Shown here in pieces: positions 30,938-59,255 of a DNA stretch of 64,000 nt (within the stretch, counting starts at the first letter, position 1; every line of letters begins with the position of its first letter). Origin of the DNA: Bacillota bacterium. GTDB lineage: Bacteria > Bacillota > Clostridia > Peptostreptococcales > Anaerovoracaceae. The stretch covers positions 17,333 to 81,332 of the forward strand of contig JAUMVV010000001.1 of NCBI GenBank assembly GCA_030529985.1, in the 5' to 3' direction. The notes under the pieces were generated by a model. That model made no database searches. It was not told where the DNA came from and saw nothing but the letters and a program-made list of their open reading frames with translations. The translations under genes and the position numbers were made by a program.

Positions 30938-31142
30938 GTTTGCCCAGCATGGGCGTTTTCTAACGGGTGAAAGTCCCGAGTGCGCGTAGGCAACAATGAA
31001 GCACATAGCCGAACAGCAAGGGTGTCCGCCGTGAGACGGAATCTGAAAGAAGCTGTAAGCAAACCTCTGACCTGACGGACAGAAACCGCATATAAGGCTC
31101 GGAAATACGGATAAGGTGGCAAAAGGCACTGAAGTCCAAAAA
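30938..31142 (+). mobile_element. Truncated group IIC intron (5' end / domain I only)
   Basis: GTTTGCCCAGCATGGGCG...GGGTGAAAGTCCCGA...GCAAGGGTGTCCG...CGGAATCTGAAAGAAGC...GCAAAC...CATATAAGGCT...GGATAAG...AAGTCC; sits directly after a terminator hairpin; no RT ORF or domain V follows. Confidence 0.85.
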
Positions 31143-31333
31143 AAGAGGAAAGCACCGGAGGCTGCTTTTGCGAGATAAAGTGTTATCTGTTTAGAGCGGT
31201 GCCAAATTTTGACAAAAGTATAGTATTCCCCTGAATACTTATGTATAATTATGGGAACACAAAAATATATATACATATTAATGAAATAAAAGACAGAGCT
31301 ATCATTATTATCATTCAGAAGGAGATCTATGTT

Positions 31334-46967: not shown

Positions 46968-46997
46968 TTTACACGGATAAGGCACAGGGGGTATTAT
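46968..46997 (+). promoter_or_regulatory. Putative promoter of the pur leader
   Basis: TTTACA-18 nt-TATTAT about 20 nt upstream of the purine aptamer. Confidence 0.55.
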
Positions 46998-47017
46998 AGA
47001 GGTGAACTAAATAGGAA

Positions 47018-47150
47018 GTTTACTAATATATATTCAGTATGATGGCCTGAAAGTTTCTACCACGCGCCGAAAAAAAGTGACTATTAGTAGGTTGTTTTGA
47101 TTTTGTATTTATATTAGTAAACAGGTTTATTTCCAATAGGCCTGTTTTTT
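47018..47150 (+). ncRNA. Purine (guanine-type) riboswitch with antiterminator and terminator
   Basis: P1 TACTAATA/TATTAGTA, P2 TTCAG/CTGAA with loop ATGATGG, J2/3 AGTTTCTAC, L3 CCGAAAA, J3/1 AC (specificity C at 47081); terminator at 47119-47150. Confidence 0.85.
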
Positions 47151-47175
47151 GTATTTCAGAATCAAAAGGCCGGAA

Positions 47176-47290
47176 CCTGTCGTAACTGACGAAGAGCGGA
47201 GCACCGCATGGAAGCGGCAGGGGATCATTTGTCGTTCGTCTGGGCAGAATCAGTTCATTTACTGGATTGGTCTGCCCTTGTTTAATTTTT
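47176..47290 (+). ncRNA. ZMP/ZTP (pfl) riboswitch with terminator
   Basis: CCTGTCG-TAACTGACGAA-GA-GCGG(AGCA)CCGC-ATGGAAG-CGGCAGG, 3' hairpin GTCGTTCGTCTGGGC, pseudoknot GACGAA/TTCGTC; terminator GGGCAGA...TCTGCCC-TTGTTT. Confidence 0.88.
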
Positions 47291-47306
47291 ATAATAGGAG
47301 AAGATA

Positions 47307-47789
47307 ATGAAAAAGGTCGGAATAGTAATGGGCTCAGACAGTGATATGCCTGTAGCAGAGAAAGCAATTGAACGCCTGAAGGGATTCGGGATCCCTTATG
47401 AGGTGCACATCTATTCGGCACACCGCACGCCGGAACAGGCGAAAGCCTTCGCGGAGGGAGCTGAAAGAGCCGGTTTCGGCACAATAATAGCTCTGGCGGG
47501 AAAAGCCGCACATCTGGCAGGAGCGTTGGCGGCGAACACCACACTGCCGGTGATCGGGGTTCCGGTAAAGTCCTCAACACTTGACGGTCTGGACGCATTG
47601 CTTTCGACGGTGCAGATGCCAGGCGGGATCCCGGTGGCGACTGTGGCGATCGATGGTGCGGCAAACGCGGCGATTCTGGCGGCACAGATAATAGCGACAG
47701 GTGACGGGGAGCTTGCGGCAGCAATCAGAGAAGATCGTGCAAAAGCAGCAGCAGAGGTTCTGAAGAAGGATGCTGCACTGAACATATAA
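47307..47789 (+). CDS. purE: N5-CAIR mutase / AIR carboxylase
   Basis: [30 protein letters not shown]. Confidence 0.96.
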
Positions 47790-47805
47790 CGACAGGAGGT
47801 TTACC

Positions 47806-48489
47806 ATGGAAAAATTAGTTTACACAGGAAAGACAAAGGATGTATTCGCACTGGACAACGGCAACTATATGCTTAAGTTCAAGGATGACTGTACCGGCAG
47901 GGACGGCGTGTTTGATCCGGGAGAAAACGCAGTCGGACTGACAATCGAAGGTGTCGGCGATGTAAACCTCAGGATGTCGGTTTACTTCTTCGAAAAGATA
48001 AATGCGGCAGGCATCAGGACCCATTTCGTAGGCGCCGACTTGGACAACACCACTATGGAGGTCAAGCCGGCCAAGGTCTTCGGCAAGGGACTCGAGGTGA
48101 TCTGCAGGCACAAGGCGGTAGGTTCGTTCTTCAGAAGGTACGGCGAATACATAGAAGAAGGTGCGGATCTTCCCGCATATGTGGAAACAACCTTCAAGAA
48201 CGACGAGCTGGGCGACCCGCTGGTGACAAAGGACGGGCTTATAGTTCTGGGTGTGATGACGGATGAACAGTACGAGGACCTGAAGGAAATGACACAGAAG
48301 ATCACCCGCATCGTAGCCGACGATCTCCTTGAAAAGGGGCTGGTGCTGTATGACATCAAGTTTGAGTTCGGCTACAACGAAGAGGGCAAGGTGATGCTTA
48401 TCGACGAGATAGCATCGGGCAACATGAGGGTTTACAAGGACGGAGAATACATCGGACCGCTGACACTGTCGGAACTGTTCTTCGCATAA
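47806..48489 (+). CDS. purC: SAICAR synthetase
   Basis: GKTKDVF, FKDD, DIKFEFG, LIDEI. Confidence 0.94.
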
Positions 48490-48512
48490 TTCCCGCGATA
48501 CGGAGGTAATTG

Positions 48513-49172
48513 ATGATATATTCAGAAAAAACATGCAGAGATTTCGTAAATGCGGTTGCAACGCCTGAACCCATTCCGGGCGGAGGCAGCGTTGCGGCGC
48601 TGGTAGGTGCTCTGGGAGCGGCTCTTTCGACCATGGTTGCTTCACTGACCCTCAGCAATAAGAAATATATCGCTGTTGAAGCGGAAATGGAGAAGAACAT
48701 TCAGGAAATCCATAAGCTGCAGGAGGATCTGATCAGCCTCGTTCAGAAGGACATAGATAACTTCGAGCCTCTGGCGAAGCTTTATAAAATGAAGTCAAAG
48801 GATCCTGAAGAGAAGAAGCGAATAAGAGAGGCCAAGCAGAAGGCGCTGTATGAGGCATGTCTGGTTCCTATGGAAATAATAAAGAAGTGCGGCAGGGCCA
48901 TTGAACTTTCGCAGGAATTTGCGGTGAAGGGCAACAAGGTGGTAATAGCGGATTCCGGCTCCAGCGCGGTGCTCTGCAAGGCAGCCATGCAGGCAGCCAG
49001 CTTCAATATCTACATCAATACGAATATGATGAAGGATAAGGAACTGGCACACAGGGTCAACGGAGAAACGGCACAGCGAATCGTATACTACGGAGCATTG
49101 GCGGATTCCGTATTCGGATATACGACAAATACACTTATGAATACTGTCATCGAGACAGGAGACACTATATAA
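48513..49172 (+). CDS. Cyclodeaminase/cyclohydrolase family protein (probable methenyl-THF cyclohydrolase, FchA-like)
   Basis: PIPGGGSVAAL, NIYIN; inside the pur operon. Confidence 0.8.
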   Translation: MIYSEKTCRDFVNAVATPEPIPGGGSVAALVGALGAALSTMVASLTLSNKKYIAVEAEMEKNIQEIHKLQEDLISLVQKDIDNFEPLAKLYKMKSKDPEEKKRIREAKQKALYEACLVPMEIIKKCGRAIELSQEFAVKGNKVVIADSGSSAVLCKAAMQAASFNIYINTNMMKDKELAHRVNGETAQRIVYYGALADSVFGYTTNTLMNTVIETGDTI

Positions 49173-49233
49173 CAATGCAGGAATGTGCGGCAAGCATAAG
49201 GTCACAGCACATTAGAAAGGATTTTATCGGAAA

Positions 49234-50658
49234 ATGGGCGGTTATTTTGGCGCAGTTTCATCACGAGATGTAACTCTGGATGTGTTTTACGGCACTGATT
49301 ACCATTCACACCTGGGAACCAAACGCGGCGGCATGGCGCTATACAGCGAAGAAAAAGGCTTCGACCGGGAAATACACAACATAGAGAACTCTCCCTTCAG
49401 AACCAAGTTTGAAGGCTCCATTGACAGCATGAACGGAACAGCGGGGATAGGATGCATAAGCGACTCCGATCCTCAACCGCTGCTCATACATTCAAATCTG
49501 GGAACCTATGCGATATGCTTCGTAGGCAAAATCAACAATGCGGATGCTCTCATGAAACAGTATCTGGCCTTCAGCGGAGGACATTTTGACGCTATGACCG
49601 GCGGCAGGATAAACAACACAGAGCTGCTTGCATCCATGGTGGATCAGAAGAGTGATTTCGTAAGCGGACTCAAATTCGCGCAGGAAGCTATAGAAGGCTC
49701 CGCATCTATACTGATACTCAAAGAAGACGGAAGCATAGTTGCTTCAAGAGACAAGCTGGGGAGAACACCCCTTCTTATAGGGAAGGATGAAAACGGTCAC
49801 GCCGTTGCATTCGAGTCCTTCGCATATGAGAAGCTGGGATATGAAACGGTTTACGAACCGGGACCGGGCGAGATAGTCGAGATAAGGGCGGACTCCTTCA
49901 CTACGAAGGCTCCGGCAGGAAAGAAGAAATGTATCTGTGCATTTCTGTGGTCCTACTACGGCTTTCCCACCTCCTGTTATGAAGGCATCAATGTGGAGCA
50001 CATGAGAAATATCAATGGTCACATAATGGCAAGAGAAGAGGCGAAGGACGGGAACAGCTTTGACTACGACTATATCTGCGGCGTTCCGGACTCGGGGATA
50101 GCTCATGCGATAGGTTATGCCAACGAATGCGGTGTGGACTATGCGAGACCATTCATCAAATACACGCCCACATGGCCAAGGAGCTTCATGCCGGGCTCAC
50201 AGAAGCAGAGCAGCAGAATCGCGGAGATGAAGCTGATACCCGTTACCCGGCTTATCAAGGATAAGAAGCTCCTCTTCGTGGATGACAGCATTGTCAGAGG
50301 AAACCAGCTTAAGAAGACAGGAGCCTTCCTATATTCCAGGGGAGCACGGGAGGTCCACATGAGATCCGCCTGTCCGCCTATAATGTACGGCTGCAGGTAT
50401 CTGAGTTTCGCAAGACAGACCGATGACAGAGAGCTCATTGCCAGGAAGGCGATTCTGGAGCTGGAAGGCGAAGAGGGCGAAAAGCACATAGGAGAATATT
50501 CAGATGGGAGAACCGACAGGGGCAGAGCACTGCGGGCACAGCTCTGCAAGATGATGAATTTTGATTCGTTGGAATTTCAGAACATAGAAGGAATACTCGA
50601 GGCGATAGGTCTCGATGAAGACAGCGTTTGCACATACTGCTGGAACGGAAGGGGATAG
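49234..50658 (+). CDS. purF: Amidophosphoribosyltransferase (variant lacking N-terminal Cys)
   Basis: SRDKLGRTPL, VPDSG, RSF, VDDSIVRG, ACPP, CTYCW; position in the pur operon. Confidence 0.88.
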   Translation: MGGYFGAVSSRDVTLDVFYGTDYHSHLGTKRGGMALYSEEKGFDREIHNIENSPFRTKFEGSIDSMNGTAGIGCISDSDPQPLLIHSNLGTYAICFVGKINNADALMKQYLAFSGGHFDAMTGGRINNTELLASMVDQKSDFVSGLKFAQEAIEGSASILILKEDGSIVASRDKLGRTPLLIGKDENGHAVAFESFAYEKLGYETVYEPGPGEIVEIRADSFTTKAPAGKKKCICAFLWSYYGFPTSCYEGINVEHMRNINGHIMAREEAKDGNSFDYDYICGVPDSGIAHAIGYANECGVDYARPFIKYTPTWPRSFMPGSQKQSSRIAEMKLIPVTRLIKDKKLLFVDDSIVRGNQLKKTGAFLYSRGAREVHMRSACPPIMYGCRYLSFARQTDDRELIARKAILELEGEEGEKHIGEYSDGRTDRGRALRAQLCKMMNFDSLEFQNIEGILEAIGLDEDSVCTYCWNGRG

Positions 50659-50661
50659 GTA

Positions 50662-51672
50662 ATGAAAAATTCTAGATCCGATGCTTATGCAGCATCAGGC
50701 GTAGACATCACTGCCGGCTACAGAGCTGTGCAGTTAATGAAGGAACATGTTGCCGGTACCAAAACCGCAGGAGTACTTTCCGATGTAGGAGGCTTCGGCG
50801 GACTCTTCGCTCCGGACATGAAAGGTATAGAGGAGCCGGTTCTGGTCAGCGGAACAGACGGAGTGGGGACAAAGCTCAAGCTGGCCTTCGAACTGGACAA
50901 ACACGATACTATAGGGATCGACTGTGTTGCCATGTGCGTTAACGATATTATCTGTGCAGGGGCGAAGCCCCTCTTTTTCCTGGACTACATCGCATGCGGG
51001 AAGAATGTCCCGGCGAGAATTGCTGAAATAGTGAAGGGAGTTGCAGAGGGCTGTATTCAGTCCGGTGCAGCGCTTATAGGCGGAGAAACCGCAGAGATGC
51101 CCGGCTTCTATCCGGAGGATGAGTATGATCTGGCAGGTTTTGCGGTAGGTATGGCGGATAGGGCAAAGATGCCGGACAAGGAAAATGTGGAGGAAGGAGA
51201 TGTGATCATAGCACTTCCTTCAAGCGGCGTTCACTCAAACGGATTCTCCCTCGTCAGGAAGGTTTTCGATATCAGCACAGCGGACAGAGAACTGGCGGAG
51301 ACGCTGCTCACACCGACGAAGATATATGTGAAACCGCTGCTGGCTCTCATGGATAAGATGCAGATCAAGTCCGCAGCTCACATTACAGGCGGCGGTTTTT
51401 ACGAAAATATACCGAGAGCTCTCCCGGAAGGGCTGACAGCCGGGATAAGAAAAGAGGATGTCAGAATTCTTCCGGTCTTCCGGCAGATCGCCGGGGAAGG
51501 AAACATCTCGGAAAGGGATATGTTCAACACCTTCAACATGGGAGTGGGCATGATATGCATCGTTGAAAGGAGCAGGGCGGAAGAAGCTGTGGAGATTTTG
51601 CGGGAAAAGGGTGAAGAAGCCTATGTTCTCGGTGAAGTGGTAAAGGGCGATGAAGGAGTGATCCTATGGTAA
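50662..51672 (+). CDS. purM: AIR synthetase
   Basis: TDGVGTK, GGETAEMPG, SSGVHSNG, HITGGG, FNMGVG. Confidence 0.96.
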   Translation: MKNSRSDAYAASGVDITAGYRAVQLMKEHVAGTKTAGVLSDVGGFGGLFAPDMKGIEEPVLVSGTDGVGTKLKLAFELDKHDTIGIDCVAMCVNDIICAGAKPLFFLDYIACGKNVPARIAEIVKGVAEGCIQSGAALIGGETAEMPGFYPEDEYDLAGFAVGMADRAKMPDKENVEEGDVIIALPSSGVHSNGFSLVRKVFDISTADRELAETLLTPTKIYVKPLLALMDKMQIKSAAHITGGGFYENIPRALPEGLTAGIRKEDVRILPVFRQIAGEGNISERDMFNTFNMGVGMICIVERSRAEEAVEILREKGEEAYVLGEVVKGDEGVILW

Positions 51673-53009
51673 AAACAAAGATCGCGGTTCTGATTTCCGG
51701 AAACGGCACCAACCTGCAGGCACTGATAGATGCGCAGAGAAACGGCAAGCTTAGGCACGGCATAATAGAGCTGGTCATTTCCTCCAACTCCATCGCCTAC
51801 GGATTGAAGCGTGCGGAAAATGCGGGAATCAAAACAGCCGTTATAACAAAGAAGATGGCGGGCAGCCAGAGAGCCTTCGAAGAGGGGATAAGAGAGGAGC
51901 TGCAAAAGAACGGAACAGAGCTTATCGTTCTCGCCGGCTTCATGCAGATCTTGAGCAAAGCCTTCACGGATGCATATCCGGGGAGGATAATAAATGTTCA
52001 TCCTTCCCTTATTCCGGCCTTCTGCGGTAAGGGCTGCTACGGACTGAAGGTTCACCGGAAGGCGCTGGAATATGGAGTCAAAGTTACGGGAGCTACAGTT
52101 CACTATGTGAATGAGATCCCGGACGGCGGCAGGATCATTCTCCAGAAGCCGGTCAGGGTCAAGAAAGGAGACACTCCGGCAGTTCTGCAGAAGAGAGTGA
52201 TGGAGGAGGCCGAGTGGCAGATTCTGCCACAGGCAGCGGACATGGTTTCGAAGAGGATCATGAAGGAGAAGACGGCGGACATGGAAGCATACGAGAAGGA
52301 GCGAATAGATAAGCTGGTGGAGGATAATTCATATCCCGGCAGAGGAATAGTGATAGGGAGAACAGCGGATGGAGCAAAGGCAGTCAGTGCCTATTTCATC
52401 ATGGGAAGATCCGAAAACAGCAGAAACCGGATTTTCGTCAGGGAGGGGGAAGAACTCTTTACCAGAGCCTTTGATGAATCCAAGCTGGAGGATCCCTCTC
52501 TCATTATCTATGCGGCAATTCGCAGGATCGCAGACAAGCTTATAGTAACAAACGGCGATCAGACAGATACCATATACGATACACTCAAGGAGGGAGGAAG
52601 CTTCGAAGATGCACTTAAAAAGCGAAGCTTCGAGCCGGATTTTCCGAACATGACACCGAGAATCAGCGGGATGGTGCAGCTGGGAGAGGATGATTTCGAA
52701 TACAAGCTGAGCATCATAAAGAGCGCAACAAAAGACGGAACAAAAATCGCGAGGTATGTCTTTGACTATGAATCGGAACCGGGGCTGGGACACTTCATCC
52801 ATACTTATGTGTGCGACGGGGATCCGCTGCCCACCTTTGCAGGGGAACCGGAAAGAGTCGATATCTCCGATGACATTGCTTCATTCACGGAGAGGCTTTG
52901 GACAAGTCTGGACGAGGACAACAGGATCGCCCTTTATGTGAGATACACGGATGCCGTAACAGGCGAATATGAAGACAGGCTGATAAACAGGATGGAGAAA
53001 CAGGTATGA
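51666..53009 (+). CDS. purN: Fusion of GAR transformylase PurN and PurO-type IMP cyclohydrolase
   Basis: N-half SGNGTNLQA, LAGFM, NVHPSL, GATVH; C-half YPGRGIVIG, FIMGRSENSRNR, VTNGDQTD, TPRISG. Confidence 0.88.
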   Translation: MVKTKIAVLISGNGTNLQALIDAQRNGKLRHGIIELVISSNSIAYGLKRAENAGIKTAVITKKMAGSQRAFEEGIREELQKNGTELIVLAGFMQILSKAFTDAYPGRIINVHPSLIPAFCGKGCYGLKVHRKALEYGVKVTGATVHYVNEIPDGGRIILQKPVRVKKGDTPAVLQKRVMEEAEWQILPQAADMVSKRIMKEKTADMEAYEKERIDKLVEDNSYPGRGIVIGRTADGAKAVSAYFIMGRSENSRNRIFVREGEELFTRAFDESKLEDPSLIIYAAIRRIADKLIVTNGDQTDTIYDTLKEGGSFEDALKKRSFEPDFPNMTPRISGMVQLGEDDFEYKLSIIKSATKDGTKIARYVFDYESEPGLGHFIHTYVCDGDPLPTFAGEPERVDISDDIASFTERLWTSLDEDNRIALYVRYTDAVTGEYEDRLINRMEKQV

Positions 53010-54190
53010 AGGAATTTACATTGAAATACGGATGCAATCCGAATCAGAAGACGGCGAGAATCTACATGGAGGAGGGAAAGGAGCTTCCCATAAAAATCTT
53101 AAACGGCAGGCCGGGATATATCAATTTCCTGGATGCCTTTAACTCGTGGCAGCTGGTCAAGGAGCTGAAGGAAGCGACGGGGATGCCTGCAGCAGCATCC
53201 TTCAAGCATGTAAGTCCTACTTCCGCCGCAGTGGGAGAAAAACTGACAGACAGGATGAAGAGAGCCTATTTCGTGGATGACATCGAGGGGCTGGACGATT
53301 CCCCCATAGCCTGTGCATATGCCAGAGCCAGAGGAACAGACAGGCTCTGCTCCTTCGGAGACTTCATAGCACTGTCGGATATATGCGATGAAACCTGTGC
53401 GAGAATAATAAAGAGAGAGGTGTCCGACGGGGTGATCGCTCCGGGCTTTACGGATAAGGCGCTGGACATGCTGAACGGCAAGAAGAATGGAAACTACAGC
53501 ATTATTGAAATCGATCCGGAATATGAACCGGCGCAGCAGGAGACCCGACAGGTTTACGGAGTGACTTTCGAACAGACGCATAACAGCATCAGGATAGATG
53601 CAGGACTGCTGCAGAACATCGTGACCGCAAACAGAGCATTGCCCGAGGATAAGAAGAGGGACATGCTTATAGCCATGATAGCTCTGAAATACACCCAGTC
53701 AAATTCCGTATGCTTTGCTGCAGACGGCCAGTGCATAGGAATAGGAGCCGGACAGCAGTCCAGGATCCACTGCACGAGACTGGCGGCGGATAAGGCGGAT
53801 ACATGGCAGCTTAGAATGCACGACAAGGTGCTGGAACTGCCTTTCAAGGACAAATTGCCCAGAGCGGTAAGAGACAATGCCATAGACGGATATATCAACG
53901 AATACGAGGAGGATGTATGCGAGAAAGGCAACTGGCAGAAATATTTCAAATACCGGCCTGAACCGCTGACGGCCCGAGAAAAGAGGGAATATCTGGATTC
54001 CCGCAAGGGAGCGGTGCTGGCATCGGATGCATTCTTCCCCTTTGGCGACAGCATTGAGAGAGCCGCTCTGAGCGGGGCATCATATGTAGTTGAACCGGGG
54101 GGTTCCTTAAGAGACGACGATGTGATACAGGCTGCCGACAGGCACGGCATGGTAATGGTATTCAACGGAGTGAGACTGTTTCATCACTAA
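53006..54190 (+). CDS. purH: Monofunctional AICAR transformylase (no IMPCH domain)
   Basis: Begins at LKYGCNPNQ; SFKHVSP, KYTQSNS, GAGQQSRIHC, SDAFFPF, RLFHH. Confidence 0.92.
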   Translation: MKEFTLKYGCNPNQKTARIYMEEGKELPIKILNGRPGYINFLDAFNSWQLVKELKEATGMPAAASFKHVSPTSAAVGEKLTDRMKRAYFVDDIEGLDDSPIACAYARARGTDRLCSFGDFIALSDICDETCARIIKREVSDGVIAPGFTDKALDMLNGKKNGNYSIIEIDPEYEPAQQETRQVYGVTFEQTHNSIRIDAGLLQNIVTANRALPEDKKRDMLIAMIALKYTQSNSVCFAADGQCIGIGAGQQSRIHCTRLAADKADTWQLRMHDKVLELPFKDKLPRAVRDNAIDGYINEYEEDVCEKGNWQKYFKYRPEPLTAREKREYLDSRKGAVLASDAFFPFGDSIERAALSGASYVVEPGGSLRDDDVIQAADRHGMVMVFNGVRLFHH

Positions 54191-54220
54191 AAGGATGAAG
54201 GTATCGTGAAGGAGGAAGAA

Positions 54221-55492
54221 ATGAAAATCATGGTAGTAGGCGGCGGCGGCCGTGAACATGCAATAATCAAAAACCTCAGGAAAAGCCCGAAGGCGGAGGT
54301 GATATACGCTCTTCCCGGAAACGGCGGAATAGCTTCAGATGCGGAGTGCGCAGATATCAGGGCGACGGACATAGAAGCTGTTGTGGACTTCGCGAGAGCA
54401 AAGGCGATAGACTATGCGGTGGTGGCACCGGACGATCCTCTGGCTATGGGCTGCGTGGATGCCCTCAATGAAGCGGGCATCAGAGCCTTCGGACCGGATA
54501 AAAAGGCTGCGGAAATAGAGGCCAGCAAAATCTTCTCCAAGAACCTCATGAAGAAGTATGGGATCCCAACTGCCGGATATGAAGTCTTCGGGGAGTCCGG
54601 AGCAGCTCTGGAATATCTGAAGACCTCACCTGTTCCGGTTGTCATCAAGGCGGACGGTCTTGCTCTGGGCAAGGGAGTTGTAATCGCGGAGACGAGAGAA
54701 GAGGCTGCAGAGGCGGTACGCTCAATGATGGAGGAAAAGAAATTCGGCGACAGCGGAAACCGTATAGTGATAGAGGAGTTTCTCACGGGACCGGAGGTTT
54801 CCGTGCTGTCATTCACCGACGGCAAAACCCTGGTTCCTATGGTTTCATCCATGGATCACAAGCGTGCGCTGGATGGTGACAGAGGTCTTAACACGGGAGG
54901 AATGGGAGCAGTGGCACCGAACCCTTACTATACGGAGGAGATTGCGGAGCGCTGCATGAAGGAAATATTCCTTCCGACGATAGAGGCGATGAAGGCGGAA
55001 GGAAGGGTCTTCAAAGGTTGTCTGTATTTCGGGCTTATGCTGACAGAAGAGGGTCCTAAGGTGATAGAATACAACTGCAGATTCGGAGATCCTGAGACGC
55101 AGGTCGTCCTGCCTTTGCTGGAAAGCGATCTATTGGAAGTAATGGAGGCTGTTACCGACGGCAGGCTTTCGGAGACGGAGGTCAAATTCGCAGACAAGTG
55201 CGCCTGCTGTGTGGTGCTCGCTTCAGGAGGCTATCCGGGAAGCTATGAAAAGGGCTGCGAGATCACCATGGGACAGATGGACAGCAATGTGGAAGTCTTT
55301 GTTGCGGGAGCCTCTTTGCAGGATGAGATGCTGAAGACCTCCGGGGGGAGAGTTATGGGAGTTACTGCTGTGGCGGACACGCTGGCGGAAGCGATCGACT
55401 CAGCATACAGGAATGTGAAAAAGATAGAGTTTGAAAAAGTGCATTACAGAACGGATATCGGAAAGCGTGCTCTCGAGGCGGAAAGGAAGTAG
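54221..55492 (+). CDS. purD: GAR synthetase
   Basis: VGGGGREHA, KADGLALGKGV, DHKR, NTGGMG, RFGDPE. Confidence 0.96.
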   Translation: MKIMVVGGGGREHAIIKNLRKSPKAEVIYALPGNGGIASDAECADIRATDIEAVVDFARAKAIDYAVVAPDDPLAMGCVDALNEAGIRAFGPDKKAAEIEASKIFSKNLMKKYGIPTAGYEVFGESGAALEYLKTSPVPVVIKADGLALGKGVVIAETREEAAEAVRSMMEEKKFGDSGNRIVIEEFLTGPEVSVLSFTDGKTLVPMVSSMDHKRALDGDRGLNTGGMGAVAPNPYYTEEIAERCMKEIFLPTIEAMKAEGRVFKGCLYFGLMLTEEGPKVIEYNCRFGDPETQVVLPLLESDLLEVMEAVTDGRLSETEVKFADKCACCVVLASGGYPGSYEKGCEITMGQMDSNVEVFVAGASLQDEMLKTSGGRVMGVTAVADTLAEAIDSAYRNVKKIEFEKVHYRTDIGKRALEAERK

Positions 55493-55493
55493 C

Positions 55494-58400
55494 ATGGTTT
55501 ACAGAGTTTTTGTAGAGAAAAAAGAGGCGGTTGCAAATGAGGCAAAGGGGCTTCTGGAAGAACTCAGAACCTTTCTGGGAATAGAAGAGCTTGAAGCCGT
55601 GAGAGTTCTGAACAGATACGATGTTGAAGGAATTGAGGAAGAGCTGTTTGAAGAATGTACGGGCAGCGTGTTTTCGGAGCCGCAGGTCGACATAGTGTAC
55701 AGAACCCGGGGGCTGGAGCCTTCGGAATTTGATGCGGGTCGGGAAGCTGCTGCGGATGCAGGGAAAGAACTGCACATGTTTGCTGTAGAAGCTTTGCCGG
55801 GACAGTACGATCAGCGGGCGGACTCGGCAGCCCAGTGCATACAGATAATTTCACAGGGAGAACGACCTCTCGTGAAATGCGCCAAACTGTATATACTCGA
55901 GGGAAGGCTGAACCCGCGGGATATAGAGGCGGTCAGAGATTATGTGATAAATCCTGTCGAAATGCGGGAGGCTGCCCTTGATATGCCTGAGACCCTTAAG
56001 ACCGTTTACGACATCCCGAAAATGGTTGAAGTGCTTGAAGGTTTCAACGAAATGGATGAAGAGGAACTGAGAAAATTCATTGAGGACAGAGGTCTTGCCA
56101 TGGATATTGACGATATCCGCATGTGCCGGGATTACTTCAGAGAAGAGGGCAGAGCCCCAACCATAACGGAAATACGGATGATCGACACCTACTGGTCCGA
56201 CCATTGCAGGCATACGACCTTCAACACAGTAATAGATGAGGTGAGCTTCGAGGATGAAACTCTCAGCAAGGCATACGGGGAATATCTGGATATAAGAAAT
56301 CGTTTAGGAAGGAAAAAGCCTGTAACCCTTATGGACATAGGCACGATTGCAGCTAAGGCACTTAAGGCAGAGGGTCTGATGGATGGTCTGGACGAGTCCG
56401 AAGAGATCAACGCCTGCACTGTTAAGATCAAAGCGGTAATCGACGGCAGACAGGAAGACTGGTTGCTGCTCTTCAAGAACGAGACCCATAATCACCCGAC
56501 AGAGATAGAGCCTTTTGGCGGAGCGGCGACCTGCATAGGAGGAGCCATAAGAGACCCTCTCTCCGGCAGAGCATATGTATATACGGCAATGAGAATAACA
56601 GGGGCGGCGGATCCGCTGAAGCCTCTTAAGGAAACGATGAAGGGAAAGCTGCCGCAGAGGAAGCTGGTCACTTCGGCTGCAGACGGATATTCCTCCTACG
56701 GCAATCAGATAGGCGTGGCAACGGGCCTGGTTCAGGAGATCTACCACGATAGATATGCGGCCAAGAGGATGGAGCTGGGTGCAGTTATAGGAGCGGCACC
56801 GGCGGCAAATGTTGTTCGCGAGAAACCGGAGCCGGGAGATATCATCATCCTTCTGGGGGGAAGGACGGGTCGTGACGGCTGCGGCGGAGCAACGGGATCA
56901 TCCAAATCCCACGATGTAAGCTCACTGGAAAGCTGCGGAGCGGAGGTTCAGAAGGGCAACGCCCCTGAAGAGAGAAAGCTCCAGAGACTGTTCAGAAACG
57001 GCAAAGCTTCCCGCATGATAAAGCGCTGCAACGACTTCGGAGCAGGAGGCGTTTCCGTGGCAATAGGGGAGCTGGCCGAGGGACTGGACATCGACCTCGA
57101 TGTAGTGCCGAAGAAATATGAGGGGCTGGACGGGACGGAGCTGGCCATCAGCGAATCCCAGGAAAGAATGGCGGTGGTAATTGCTGCATCGGACAGGGAA
57201 GCCTTTTGCAGTCTGGCCGCCGATGAAAATCTGGAGGCGACAGTTGTTGCGGCTGTAACGGCAGAGCCTCGGCTCGTTATGCACTGGCAGGGCAGGAAGA
57301 TAGTGGACATTTCCCGCAGCTTCCTGGATTCAAATGGAGCGCCTAAACACATCAGGGTCAAAGCCGCTGCCGCGAAGGCAGACGCACTGAAGAGGGCGCT
57401 GCCTTCGGGAGAAGGCTTCGCCGGAAAGTATATGGCGCTTGCGGAGGATCTCAATATCTGCTCCCGGAAGGGTCTTTCGGAAAAATTTGATTCAACGATA
57501 GGTGCAGGAACGGTTGTGATGCCTTTTGGCGGGAAATACCAGATGACTCCTTCACAGAGCATGGTCCAGAAGATTTCCGCAGCGGACAGCACATCGCGAA
57601 CCTGCTCAATCATGTCGTGGGGATACGATCCCTTCATTTCGGAGAGAAGTCCTTTCCACGGCGCGTACCTGGCAGTTGTGGATTCAATGTGCAAGCTGGT
57701 CGCATCGGGGGGCGGAAGAGAGGCGTCATATCTGAGCTTTCAGGAATACTTTGAAAAGTTGGGAAGGGATTCTTCAAGATGGGGCAAGCCTTTCGCAGCA
57801 CTTCTGGGAGCACTGAAGGCGCAGATGGGACTTAAAGTTGCAGCTATAGGCGGCAAGGACTCCATGAGCGGCACTTTCGAGGATATCAATGTTCCGCCTA
57901 CTCTGGTCTCCTTCGCGGTCAGCACTGCGGATGTTGACGATATAATCACAGATGAATTCAAGGCGGCGGGGCACAGGGTCATACTCCTGGAGGCCGCGGA
58001 GGATGAGAACGGACTGCCGGGCACAGCTTCGCTGAAGGCAAATTTCGAAAAGATAAAGGCTCTGGGAGATGCGGGGAAAATCTATGCCGCATATGTTCCG
58101 GGCATGGGAGGAATCGCGGAAGCGGTGATGAAGATGTGCTTCGGCAACATGATAGGTTTCACCTTTGAGGATATGGATGAAGAGAAGCTGTTCGGGTACA
58201 GCTGCGGATCCTTTGTTCTGGAGGTTGCAGATGATGTTGAAGAGGGTGAACTCCTGGGACGCACCGAAGCGGAACCTGTTATCGCGAAGGGAGAGGAAAG
58301 CATTGAGCTTGAAAGGCTTCTTAAAGTCTACGAGGCGAAGCTGGAATCCGTATATCCATGCAATATAGATGCGGCGGAGCAGAACATACCCGAGATAACA

Positions 58401-59255
58401 TACAGGAGAGAAGAGCATGAGGGAGATATCTGCACTAAGGCAGCAATTGCCGTGGCAAGACCTAAGGTGCTTATTCCCGCCTTCCCGGGAACGAACTGCG
58501 AATACGATTCGGCAAGAGCCATGGAAGCAGCGGGAGCTGATGCTGAGATAATGCTTATCAGGAATATGAACGGGGAGGCCATAGCGCAGTCCGTCGAGGA
58601 CTTTGCGGAGGCGCTCAGGCAATCGCAGATGGTATTCATACCGGGAGGGTTTTCCGGAGGAGATGAGCCGGATGGTTCAGGCAAGTTCATTACCGCCTTC
58701 TTCAGAAACCCGGCGGTAAAAGAGGCGGTGGCAGATCTCATGGACAGGAGAGGCGGCCTCATGTGCGGAATCTGCAACGGATTTCAGGCACTGATAAAGC
58801 TGGGGCTTGTCCCTTATGGCAGGATAATCGACACCGACGAGAGCTGCCCGACCCTGACACTGAACGAGATAGGAAGGCACCAGTCAAGACTGGTCCGCAT
58901 CAGAGTAAGCTCGAACAAATCTCCTTGGCTTGCCGGTACGGAGACCGGCGAGGTTTTTACTGTGCCTGTATCCCACGGAGAAGGGCGGCTGCTGGCGGAT
59001 GAGGAGCTTCTGAAGAAGCTGGCCGCCGAAGGACAGATCGCGACCCAGTATGTGGATTTCGAGGGCAAACCTTCGGGAGATATCAGATTCAACCCTAACG
59101 GCTCTGCCTTTGCGATAGAGGGAATGACTTCGCCTGATGGCAGGATTTTCGGCAAGATGGGGCATACGGAGAGAACCGGTTACGGGCTCTATAAGAATGT
59201 GCCCGGAAACTATGATATGAAGATGTTCGAATCCGCCGTGAAATTCTTTGACTGA
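55494..59255 (+). CDS. purL: FGAM synthase (large fused type with C-terminal glutaminase)
   Basis: WSDHCRH, KNETHNHP, SESQERM, GGKDSMS, PGTNCE, GICNGFQ, SHGEG, MGHTER. Confidence 0.96.
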   Translation: MVYRVFVEKKEAVANEAKGLLEELRTFLGIEELEAVRVLNRYDVEGIEEELFEECTGSVFSEPQVDIVYRTRGLEPSEFDAGREAAADAGKELHMFAVEALPGQYDQRADSAAQCIQIISQGERPLVKCAKLYILEGRLNPRDIEAVRDYVINPVEMREAALDMPETLKTVYDIPKMVEVLEGFNEMDEEELRKFIEDRGLAMDIDDIRMCRDYFREEGRAPTITEIRMIDTYWSDHCRHTTFNTVIDEVSFEDETLSKAYGEYLDIRNRLGRKKPVTLMDIGTIAAKALKAEGLMDGLDESEEINACTVKIKAVIDGRQEDWLLLFKNETHNHPTEIEPFGGAATCIGGAIRDPLSGRAYVYTAMRITGAADPLKPLKETMKGKLPQRKLVTSAADGYSSYGNQIGVATGLVQEIYHDRYAAKRMELGAVIGAAPAANVVREKPEPGDIIILLGGRTGRDGCGGATGSSKSHDVSSLESCGAEVQKGNAPEERKLQRLFRNGKASRMIKRCNDFGAGGVSVAIGELAEGLDIDLDVVPKKYEGLDGTELAISESQERMAVVIAASDREAFCSLAADENLEATVVAAVTAEPRLVMHWQGRKIVDISRSFLDSNGAPKHIRVKAAAAKADALKRALPSGEGFAGKYMALAEDLNICSRKGLSEKFDSTIGAGTVVMPFGGKYQMTPSQSMVQKISAADSTSRTCSIMSWGYDPFISERSPFHGAYLAVVDSMCKLVASGGGREASYLSFQEYFEKLGRDSSRWGKPFAALLGALKAQMGLKVAAIGGKDSMSGTFEDINVPPTLVSFAVSTADVDDIITDEFKAAGHRVILLEAAEDENGLPGTASLKANFEKIKALGDAGKIYAAYVPGMGGIAEAVMKMCFGNMIGFTFEDMDEEKLFGYSCGSFVLEVADDVEEGELLGRTEAEPVIAKGEESIELERLLKVYEAKLESVYPCNIDAAEQNIPEITYRREEHEGDICTKAAIAVARPKVLIPAFPGTNCEYDSARAMEAAGADAEIMLIRNMNGEAIAQSVEDFAEALRQSQMVFIPGGFSGGDEPDGSGKFITAFFRNPAVKEAVADLMDRRGGLMCGICNGFQALIKLGLVPYGRIIDTDESCPTLTLNEIGRHQSRLVRIRVSSNKSPWLAGTETGEVFTVPVSHGEGRLLADEELLKKLAAEGQIATQYVDFEGKPSGDIRFNPNGSAFAIEGMTSPDGRIFGKMGHTERTGYGLYKNVPGNYDMKMFESAVKFFD

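Follow-up and report, generated by a model that had tools for sequence, protein, structure and literature searches.

Does the leader of a single purine biosynthesis operon read two ligands, guanine through an OFF switch and ZMP/ZTP through an ON switch, before RNA polymerase reaches purE, and how would the two inputs be combined? The question is raised by a leader of ~300 nt found in a 64,000-nt stretch of Anaerovoracaceae DNA (the window), which belongs to an assembly that is 84% complete and is labelled G000. A preliminary description of the locus had predicted such a two-input gate and had proposed a search with the Rfam Purine and ZMP-ZTP models. Every coordinate given in that description was confirmed. 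Both models gave matches above their cut-offs, and three Rfam families, these two included, reach their cut-offs in the 64-kb window. The purine and ZMP/ZTP aptamers are both located ahead of purE on the (+) strand and are each of full length. The ZMP/ZTP match is the only one identified in G000, and the purine match is one of two in this 84% complete assembly. The elements of the leader and the genes that it would control are as follows.

46968-46997, (+) strand: sigma-70/sigma-A-type promoter-like site (TTTACA, 18 nt, TATTAT; 10/12 matches).
47004-47103, (+) strand: purine-class aptamer, predicted guanine type (RF00167, 54.6 bits).
47018-47030, (+) strand: switching strand, i.e. the 5' side of P1, with an alternative pairing to 47110-47122.
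47110-47122, (+) strand: 3' strand of the antiterminator (central helix), the last 4 nt of which are the base of terminator 1.
47119-47150, (+) strand: terminator 1, predicted to be intrinsic and under guanine control.
47172-47252, (+) strand: ZMP/ZTP (pfl) aptamer (RF01750, 55.4 bits).
47242-47290, (+) strand: predicted terminator 2, comprising a hairpin (47242-47277) and an interrupted U-rich tail (47278-47290).
47296-47309, (+) strand: ribosome-binding site AGGAG and purE start codon, clear of both hairpins.
47307-59255, (+) strand: putative controlled operon, purE to purL, with co-transcription suggested by gene spacing.

The operon consists of, in this order, purE, purC, an FTCD_C/FchA-like cyclohydrolase gene, purF, purM, a PurN-IMP-cyclohydrolase fusion gene, an AICAR formyltransferase gene, purD, and purL, the purC, purF, and FchA matches being below their respective NCBIfam cut-offs. 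It thus also encodes formyl-folate-using and cyclohydrolase-like steps. In the fusion gene (51666-53009, + strand), a PurN formyltransferase domain is joined to an archaeal-type IMP cyclohydrolase domain (PF00551 + PF07826), and this gene adjoins that for the stand-alone AICAR formyltransferase. Neither fhs nor a Bacillus-type PurR was found in G000 (84% complete). A fragment of Group II intron D1-D4-3 (79.3 bits) is present elsewhere in the window (31025-31190, + strand). The two aptamer matches belong to two classes, lie on one strand, and are separated by 68 nt; on the (+) strand, no ORF of at least 80 aa is present between them. A 233-aa ORF on the opposite strand (47023-47724) spans the leader and purE, has no Pfam match, and is interrupted by 5-13 stop codons in 7 of 7 relatives; it was therefore regarded as a non-conserved shadow frame and not as a gene. 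Translational control was judged unlikely because the ribosome-binding site is located 18 nt past the second hairpin.

Transcription probably starts near 47003-47005, as judged from the promoter-like site, which is weak evidence alone because shuffled sequence gave a mean of 1.3 such sites compared with the two found here. An equivalent site is located upstream in all of the 11 tandem loci (G000 and relatives, described below), and no sigma-70-type consensus site was detected between the two switches in any of the 11, the window scan included. These data bear on the possibility that a second promoter between the modules yields ZTP-only transcripts, so that the two switches control different transcripts. 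Such an arrangement has a precedent in adenine/T-box tandems (PMC9481103), and consensus scans miss promoters of other sigma factors. It is nonetheless extremely unlikely here: besides the lack of sigma-70-type sites between the modules, the spacer following terminator 1 is at most 25 nt and is not conserved, and in two relatives without the guanine module (G023 and G085) the ZTP aptamer directly follows the same upstream promoter as that of G000. A single transcript carrying both modules is assumed below.

The first module scored 54.6 bits against a cut-off of 37 bits and covers model positions 1-102, with P1 formed by 47021-47028 and 47082-47089. The pocket residues, the roles of which in purine aptamers have been described (PMC5480868), are all present when mapped by count from the J2/3 motif, i.e. 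U47 at 47054, U51 at 47058, and C74 in J3/1 at 47081, the last being the specificity C recognized previously. They are invariant in 22 of 22 aligned loci. J2/3 is 8 nt long and contains U51, and there are no insertions in J2/3 or J3/1. The xanthine-II and guanine-II variants are marked by U51G and/or insertions in these junctions (PMC9295807), and the aptamer, with U51 kept and the junctions free of insertions, was not assigned to either. P3 is unusually short, with three Watson-Crick pairs (47061-47063 with 47077-47079) and three more positions mismatched relative to the Rfam model, and L2 is altered such that A33/U34 fit solely after a one-base shift. The score of ~55 bits compares with 81-98 bits for the best 150 matches across the order. 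Among 18 distinct sequences, G37, G38, C60, and C61 are invariant and form the pairs G37-C61 and G38-C60, and pair 25-45 is open in eight, including that of G000. In the same 18 rows, 96.3% of the cells are paired (23-37% in slid controls) and two-sided changes are found at four pairs, in P1, P2, and the 3-bp P3. The latter result was obtained in 1 of 500 shuffles, a type of count that is overstated for both aptamers of the leader because the rows are kin and kinship was ignored.

The pocket and junction features support the assignment of the first module to the guanine type, with guanine binding predicted. The gate might instead be real with another purine, e.g. hypoxanthine or xanthine, as its first input, the short P3 and shifted L2 then representing a variant form. 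In favour of this reading, the unusual P3/L2 form is invariant across the 22 loci, its score is far below those of the canonical aptamers of the order, and weakened loop-loop contacts have been reported to alter purine choice (PMC5480868). However, U47, U51, and C74 are canonical, the junctions lack the insertions of xanthine-II and guanine-II (PMC9295807), G37, G38, C60, and C61 do not vary, and the gene context is that of de novo synthesis, all of which make a different purine distinctly unlikely, and guanine is retained as the predicted ligand. The second purine aptamer of G000 (contig C18; L002:1501-1599) is located ahead of a lipoprotein-like gene; its homologues have a similar platform, a copy of P1 followed by a terminator, and their L3 deviates from the usual motif.

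The perfect complementarity claimed between the 5' strand of P1 and a downstream segment was borne out: the reverse complement of 47018-47030 is identical to 47110-47122 (13/13), and a helix of this length occurred in 1 of 500 shuffles. Each of the 11 tandem loci can form an antiterminator helix of 13-15 bp (0-1 of 500 shuffles). In G088, which has a guanine-only leader, a single base change in the switching strand is accompanied by compensatory changes in both of its partners, the 3' strand of P1 and the antiterminator strand. The terminator 1 hairpin (47119-47147) has a predicted energy of -12.1 kcal/mol (z -3.9; equalled in 1 of 200 shuffles) and is followed by a U run (47145-47150); it was detected by the terminator scan of the window, and both hairpin and U run are kept in 11 of 11 tandem loci. 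The antiterminator strand does overlap the 5' arm of this terminator, as had been noted, but by only 4 nt (AAAC, 47119-47122), and all 16 loci measured have an overlap of 4-6 nt.

The anatomy of the OFF switch, conserved with compensatory changes, therefore agrees with the preliminary description, but the switch is not 'complete' in the sense claimed there, since antiterminator and terminator are not thermodynamically exclusive. In a nearest-neighbour model, the 13-bp antiterminator combined with the upper 9 bp of terminator 1 has an energy of -29.2, and a 9-bp antiterminator combined with the full terminator one of -30.3, whereas the aptamer combined with the terminator (-26.3) is above both. 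Across the 11 tandem loci, the antiterminator state is favoured over the P1 state by ~7-13 kcal/mol, tertiary and ligand energies being outside the model. Because the overlap is only 4 nt and antiterminator and terminator can form together with almost no difference in energy, and because the antiterminator state beats the P1 state when ligand and tertiary terms are excluded, switching would have to be kinetic.

The same short overlap leads to the alternative that the first module does not switch at all, terminator 1 forming at any guanine level and the ZTP riboswitch lying behind a fixed dampener. The coexistence of the two structures at near-equal energy, the overlap of only 4-6 nt at every locus measured, and the weak P3 of the aptamer all fit this alternative. 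A fixed dampener does not, however, explain why the aptamer is 93% identical by column over 22 loci while its flanks diverge, why the antiterminator complement is kept, with three-way co-variation in G088, or why this platform occurs by itself in five guanine-only purE leaders. It is thus considered unlikely, and a guanine-responsive terminator 1 remains the preferred reading.

The second module scored 55.4 bits against a cut-off of 39 bits and covers model positions 1-86. Its P1 (47176-47183 with 47214-47221) starts 25 nt past 47150, in accordance with the distance reported earlier, and the pseudoknot is intact, GACGAA (47188-47193) being complementary to TTCGTC (47235-47240). P3 is formed by 47230-47233 and 47243-47246, and the ligand-contact U and stacking G of L3 correspond to 47241 and 47242, respectively; the equivalent U94 is joined to the Z base by two hydrogen bonds, and G95 stacks on that base (PMC10687018). 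In 14 sequences, 97.6% of all cells and 96.4% of the pseudoknot cells are paired, and five pairs, in P1 and the pseudoknot extension, show two-sided changes (3 of 500 shuffles). Slid controls for the purine and ZTP aptamers together gave 23-50% paired cells. Folded alone, the ZTP aptamer of G000 has a non-native minimum-energy structure (z -0.8). All conserved features are intact in G000 and in seven other tandem loci.

The overlap of the 3' part of the aptamer with a second terminator was also confirmed. The hairpin 47242-47277 (-20.5, z -5.1; none of 200 shuffles as good) is followed by TTGTTTAATTTTT, has its 5' arm in common with L3/P3 of the aptamer, and uses the 3' strand of P3. Its stem contains a bulge and its U-tract is interrupted, and it was not detected by the terminator scan of the window. 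Equivalent hairpins of -15.5 to -24.7 kcal/mol are present in 11 of 11 tandem loci, with variable upper stems in which pairing is kept.

The interrupted U-tract is one of several observations that would fit a vestigial ZTP module, or one whose leakiness would leave the operon effectively guanine-OFF: eleven relatives have guanine-only leaders, four of which keep a terminator-2-like hairpin with no ZTP aptamer, and among the tandem loci, G340 has a decayed ZTP aptamer and G447 and G419 have one with C in place of the contact U. Against this stand the intact conserved features in G000 and the seven other tandem loci, the two-sided changes at P1 and pseudoknot-extension pairs, and the four relatives of the genus that use a ZTP switch alone ahead of purE. 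A vestigial second module therefore appears very improbable, and a functional ZTP switch is favoured.

The ZMP-contact position is U in 80 of 83 matched ZTP loci and C in the remaining three, i.e. L100:1632-1713 (G447), L101:1305-1386 (G419), and L105 at ~620-700 (G340); the G447 and G419 aptamers still score 53.6 and 55 bits, respectively. This replacement may reflect either decay or a changed ligand. A joint reading, in which an uncatalogued gate controls the whole pur operon and its G447/G419/G340 form has switched the second input to another purine intermediate, is improbable as a whole; within it, the gate alone is likely, and the ligand switch is a long shot to which simple decay is the alternative. 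Most other ZTP riboswitches of the genus (L034-L062) are located ahead of a gene that is fhs-like, as called by eye from N-termini, or activating-enzyme-like, and not ahead of purE. In L166:528-609 (G548), a Clostridiales-2 RNA is present 49 nt downstream of the ZTP aptamer.

The order purine aptamer then ZTP aptamer ahead of purE, with both aptamers above their cut-offs, was found in 10 genomes of two genera in one family. In the first genus, 77 genomes include 38 with a ZTP match and 45 with a purine match, but only four (G000, G025, G076, and G002) carry both adjacent on one strand. In the second (g123), six of eight genomes contain the tandem (G471, G447, G419, G383, G288, and G491), and G340, in which the purine part is present and the decayed ZTP part is unscored by Rfam, provides the eleventh tandem locus. 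The leader of L069 is identical to that of G383. A pattern for the aptamer variant matched 9 of 401 family genomes, seven of them among the eight of g123. Between the genera, 65 of 72 nt of the purine aptamer and 55 of 73 nt of the ZTP aptamer are identical, compared with 27 of 63 nt just upstream. According to structure prediction, each aptamer has its own expression platform, OFF followed by ON, in 11 of 11 loci.

Relatives show every stage: both modules, either alone, neither, and a repeat inserted between the two. ZTP-only purE leaders are present in G023, G085, G078, and G077 within the genus and, with a different-looking aptamer, in G202. Guanine-only purE leaders were identified in 11 genomes, five with the terminator-1 platform, four with a terminator-2-like hairpin, and two with another hairpin. 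Ten genomes have neither aptamer in the purE leader, and nine more have purE after another gene. In G027, G019, G071, and G070 (L017, L020, L070, and L071, respectively), the guanine aptamer is followed by a strong terminator-2-like hairpin of -22 to -29 kcal/mol and the ZTP aptamer is absent; rewiring of the guanine aptamer onto terminator 2 in these four genomes was considered and set aside, as no consistent antiterminator was found. The purE leaders L015, L019, L021, and L022 (G018, G003, G008, and G035) have either no more than a small terminator-like hairpin or a purine aptamer lacking J3/1, the purine aptamer of G035 being broken; these are possibly relics of the guanine module.

The inserted repeat is a 127-nt, three-hairpin element located between terminator 1 and the ZTP aptamer in L104:1628-1754 (G491) and L105:485-611 (G340). 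It is dispersed in 28 of 401 family genomes, several inspected copies lie right after a U-rich terminator-like tail, and head-to-tail arrays are present in G288 and G302. As a dispersed repeat without an Rfam match at E values up to 5, it was rejected as a third riboswitch.

A PurE+PurC tree of 47 rows has a weak backbone. On a 28-row tree, from which 10 of 38 rows without PurC and nine distant rows were left out, the leader states need three changes, but the AU test does not reject one origin (p 0.455), and both gain and loss are compatible with the trees.

From the observed order, pairing potential, and conservation of the elements, we infer binding, termination, and logic as follows. The leader would act as two independent attenuators in series, a reading that is likely, though short of firm, with the logic NOT guanine AND ZTP and an output that is probably graded and not all-or-none. 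Transcription would begin near 47004. If guanine is bound before the polymerase reaches ~47120, P1 would stay closed, leaving AAAC at 47119-47122 free to complete terminator 1, and transcription would end near 47150. Without guanine, the 5' strand of P1 would swap onto 47110-47122 and sequester the four bases at the foot of terminator 1; the hairpin would then remain unfinished against the RNA-DNA hybrid and the polymerase would pass. The hairpin may stall because, once AAAC is base-paired with an identical GUUU, there is no gain in its invading the hybrid. Terminator 1 would thus be controlled by a kinetic strand-exchange switch, as in the Bacillus subtilis yxjA riboswitch.

Transcripts that survive terminator 1 would fold the ZTP aptamer, in which bound ZMP/ZTP would protect P3 and the pseudoknot; without ligand, terminator 2 would invade and transcription would stop near 47285. 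The pass probabilities of the two terminators would multiply, and read-through into purE would be high only at low guanine (or hypoxanthine) and high ZMP/ZTP, guanine serving as the master shut-off and ZMP as a boost for the operon. The earlier view that read-through 'needs' both conditions fits the anatomy in its sequence of guanine-OFF and ZTP-ON, but is probably too strict, as the output is expected to be graded. The enzymes encoded by the operon act upstream of ZMP in the purine pathway. Since these enzymes make ZMP, a tight ZMP requirement would be self-blocking; some leak through terminator 2 is therefore expected and a graded output is more likely.

The tandem was also sought beyond the family. 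A pattern scan of genome contigs (spacer 100-130 nt) gave seven matches, of which four were real tandems at known loci and three were chance matches without an Rfam match. The pattern covers one 30-nt spacing range and recovers only 4 of the 10 tandems known outside G000, and its silence on other lineages is accordingly weak evidence. Among metagenome contigs (spacer 104-134 nt), seven matches were obtained, none with either aptamer. The 151 genomes sampled from the order contain 47 other ZTP matches, four of which lie at loci cut by contig ends, and none of the 47 has a purine aptamer within ~400 nt, as judged for 40 by Rfam and for all 47 by a pattern that finds 21 of 23 known purine loci. 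Outside the family the tandem was thus not found in the sequence searched, which does not make it absent there.

If correct, this interpretation would extend the few known natural two-input RNA gates by one ligand pair. The gate would read both ends of the pathway, the end product and a stalled intermediate that signals formyl-folate shortage. The short leader, together with the single-module and variant forms of sister species as ready controls, makes the assembly or loss of a tandem testable, as well as the means by which an OFF switch could work with an overlap of 4 nt.

Such systems were surveyed by Sherlock et al. 2022, who searched RefSeq 80 and environmental sequence for pairs of two classes located on the same strand, less than 300 nt apart, and without an ORF between them (PMC9481103), an arrangement that this leader shares. 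The NIMPLY-type logic proposed for this leader corresponds to the class called NOT A AND B in that survey, which is represented in its Table 2 by TPP/HMP-PP, SAM-I/T box, and adenine/T box pairs; what differs here is the ligand pair. In the same table, ZTP is paired with THF-I or glycine and occupies the first position, and the sole guanine partner is PRPP. Comparison with tandem surveys had been suggested in the preliminary description, and the guanine/ZTP pair is absent from Table 2; nor does it appear in passages of PMC7266159, PMC2864571, PMC12121620, PMC9943018, or bioRxiv 10.64898/2026.06.17.733018. It was not found in the literature searched, which consisted mostly of open-access papers. 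Both aptamer classes and the gate type are already known, and what is new is probably, although not certainly, the pairing of guanine with ZTP.

With regard to the individual switches, the central helix of the B. subtilis yxjA riboswitch is a precedent for the antiterminator described here, although yxjA is a single guanine riboswitch on a nucleoside transporter gene (PMC9756952). In the C. beijerinckii pfl riboswitch, also a single switch, terminator formation requires disruption of P3 and the pseudoknot, and the contact U and G of L3 are present in our leader too (PMC10687018). Relative to the Rfam consensus, the pseudoknot of this leader has an A-U pair in place of G-C and may extend to 6 bp. 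Known tandems that combine a ZTP ON switch with an OFF switch have the same truth table with the inputs swapped, but they place ZTP first, use another OFF ligand, and precede formyl-folate/serine genes and not a whole pur operon.

A counterpart in gene context is the guanine/PRPP gate, in which a guanine aptamer likewise comes first, followed by an activating aptamer, ahead of de novo purine genes (PMC5912903). In that IMPLY gate the aptamers are 5-7 nt apart and have one common terminator, whereas terminator 1 lies between the aptamers here, for which reason the present leader was not classified as an interactive IMPLY gate (cf. PMC5912903). The two arrangements would thus give contrasting hierarchies on the same genes: PRPP overrides guanine where the aptamers share a single terminator (PMC5912903), whereas in the guanine/ZTP leader, with a terminator separating the aptamers, guanine would dominate and override ZTP.
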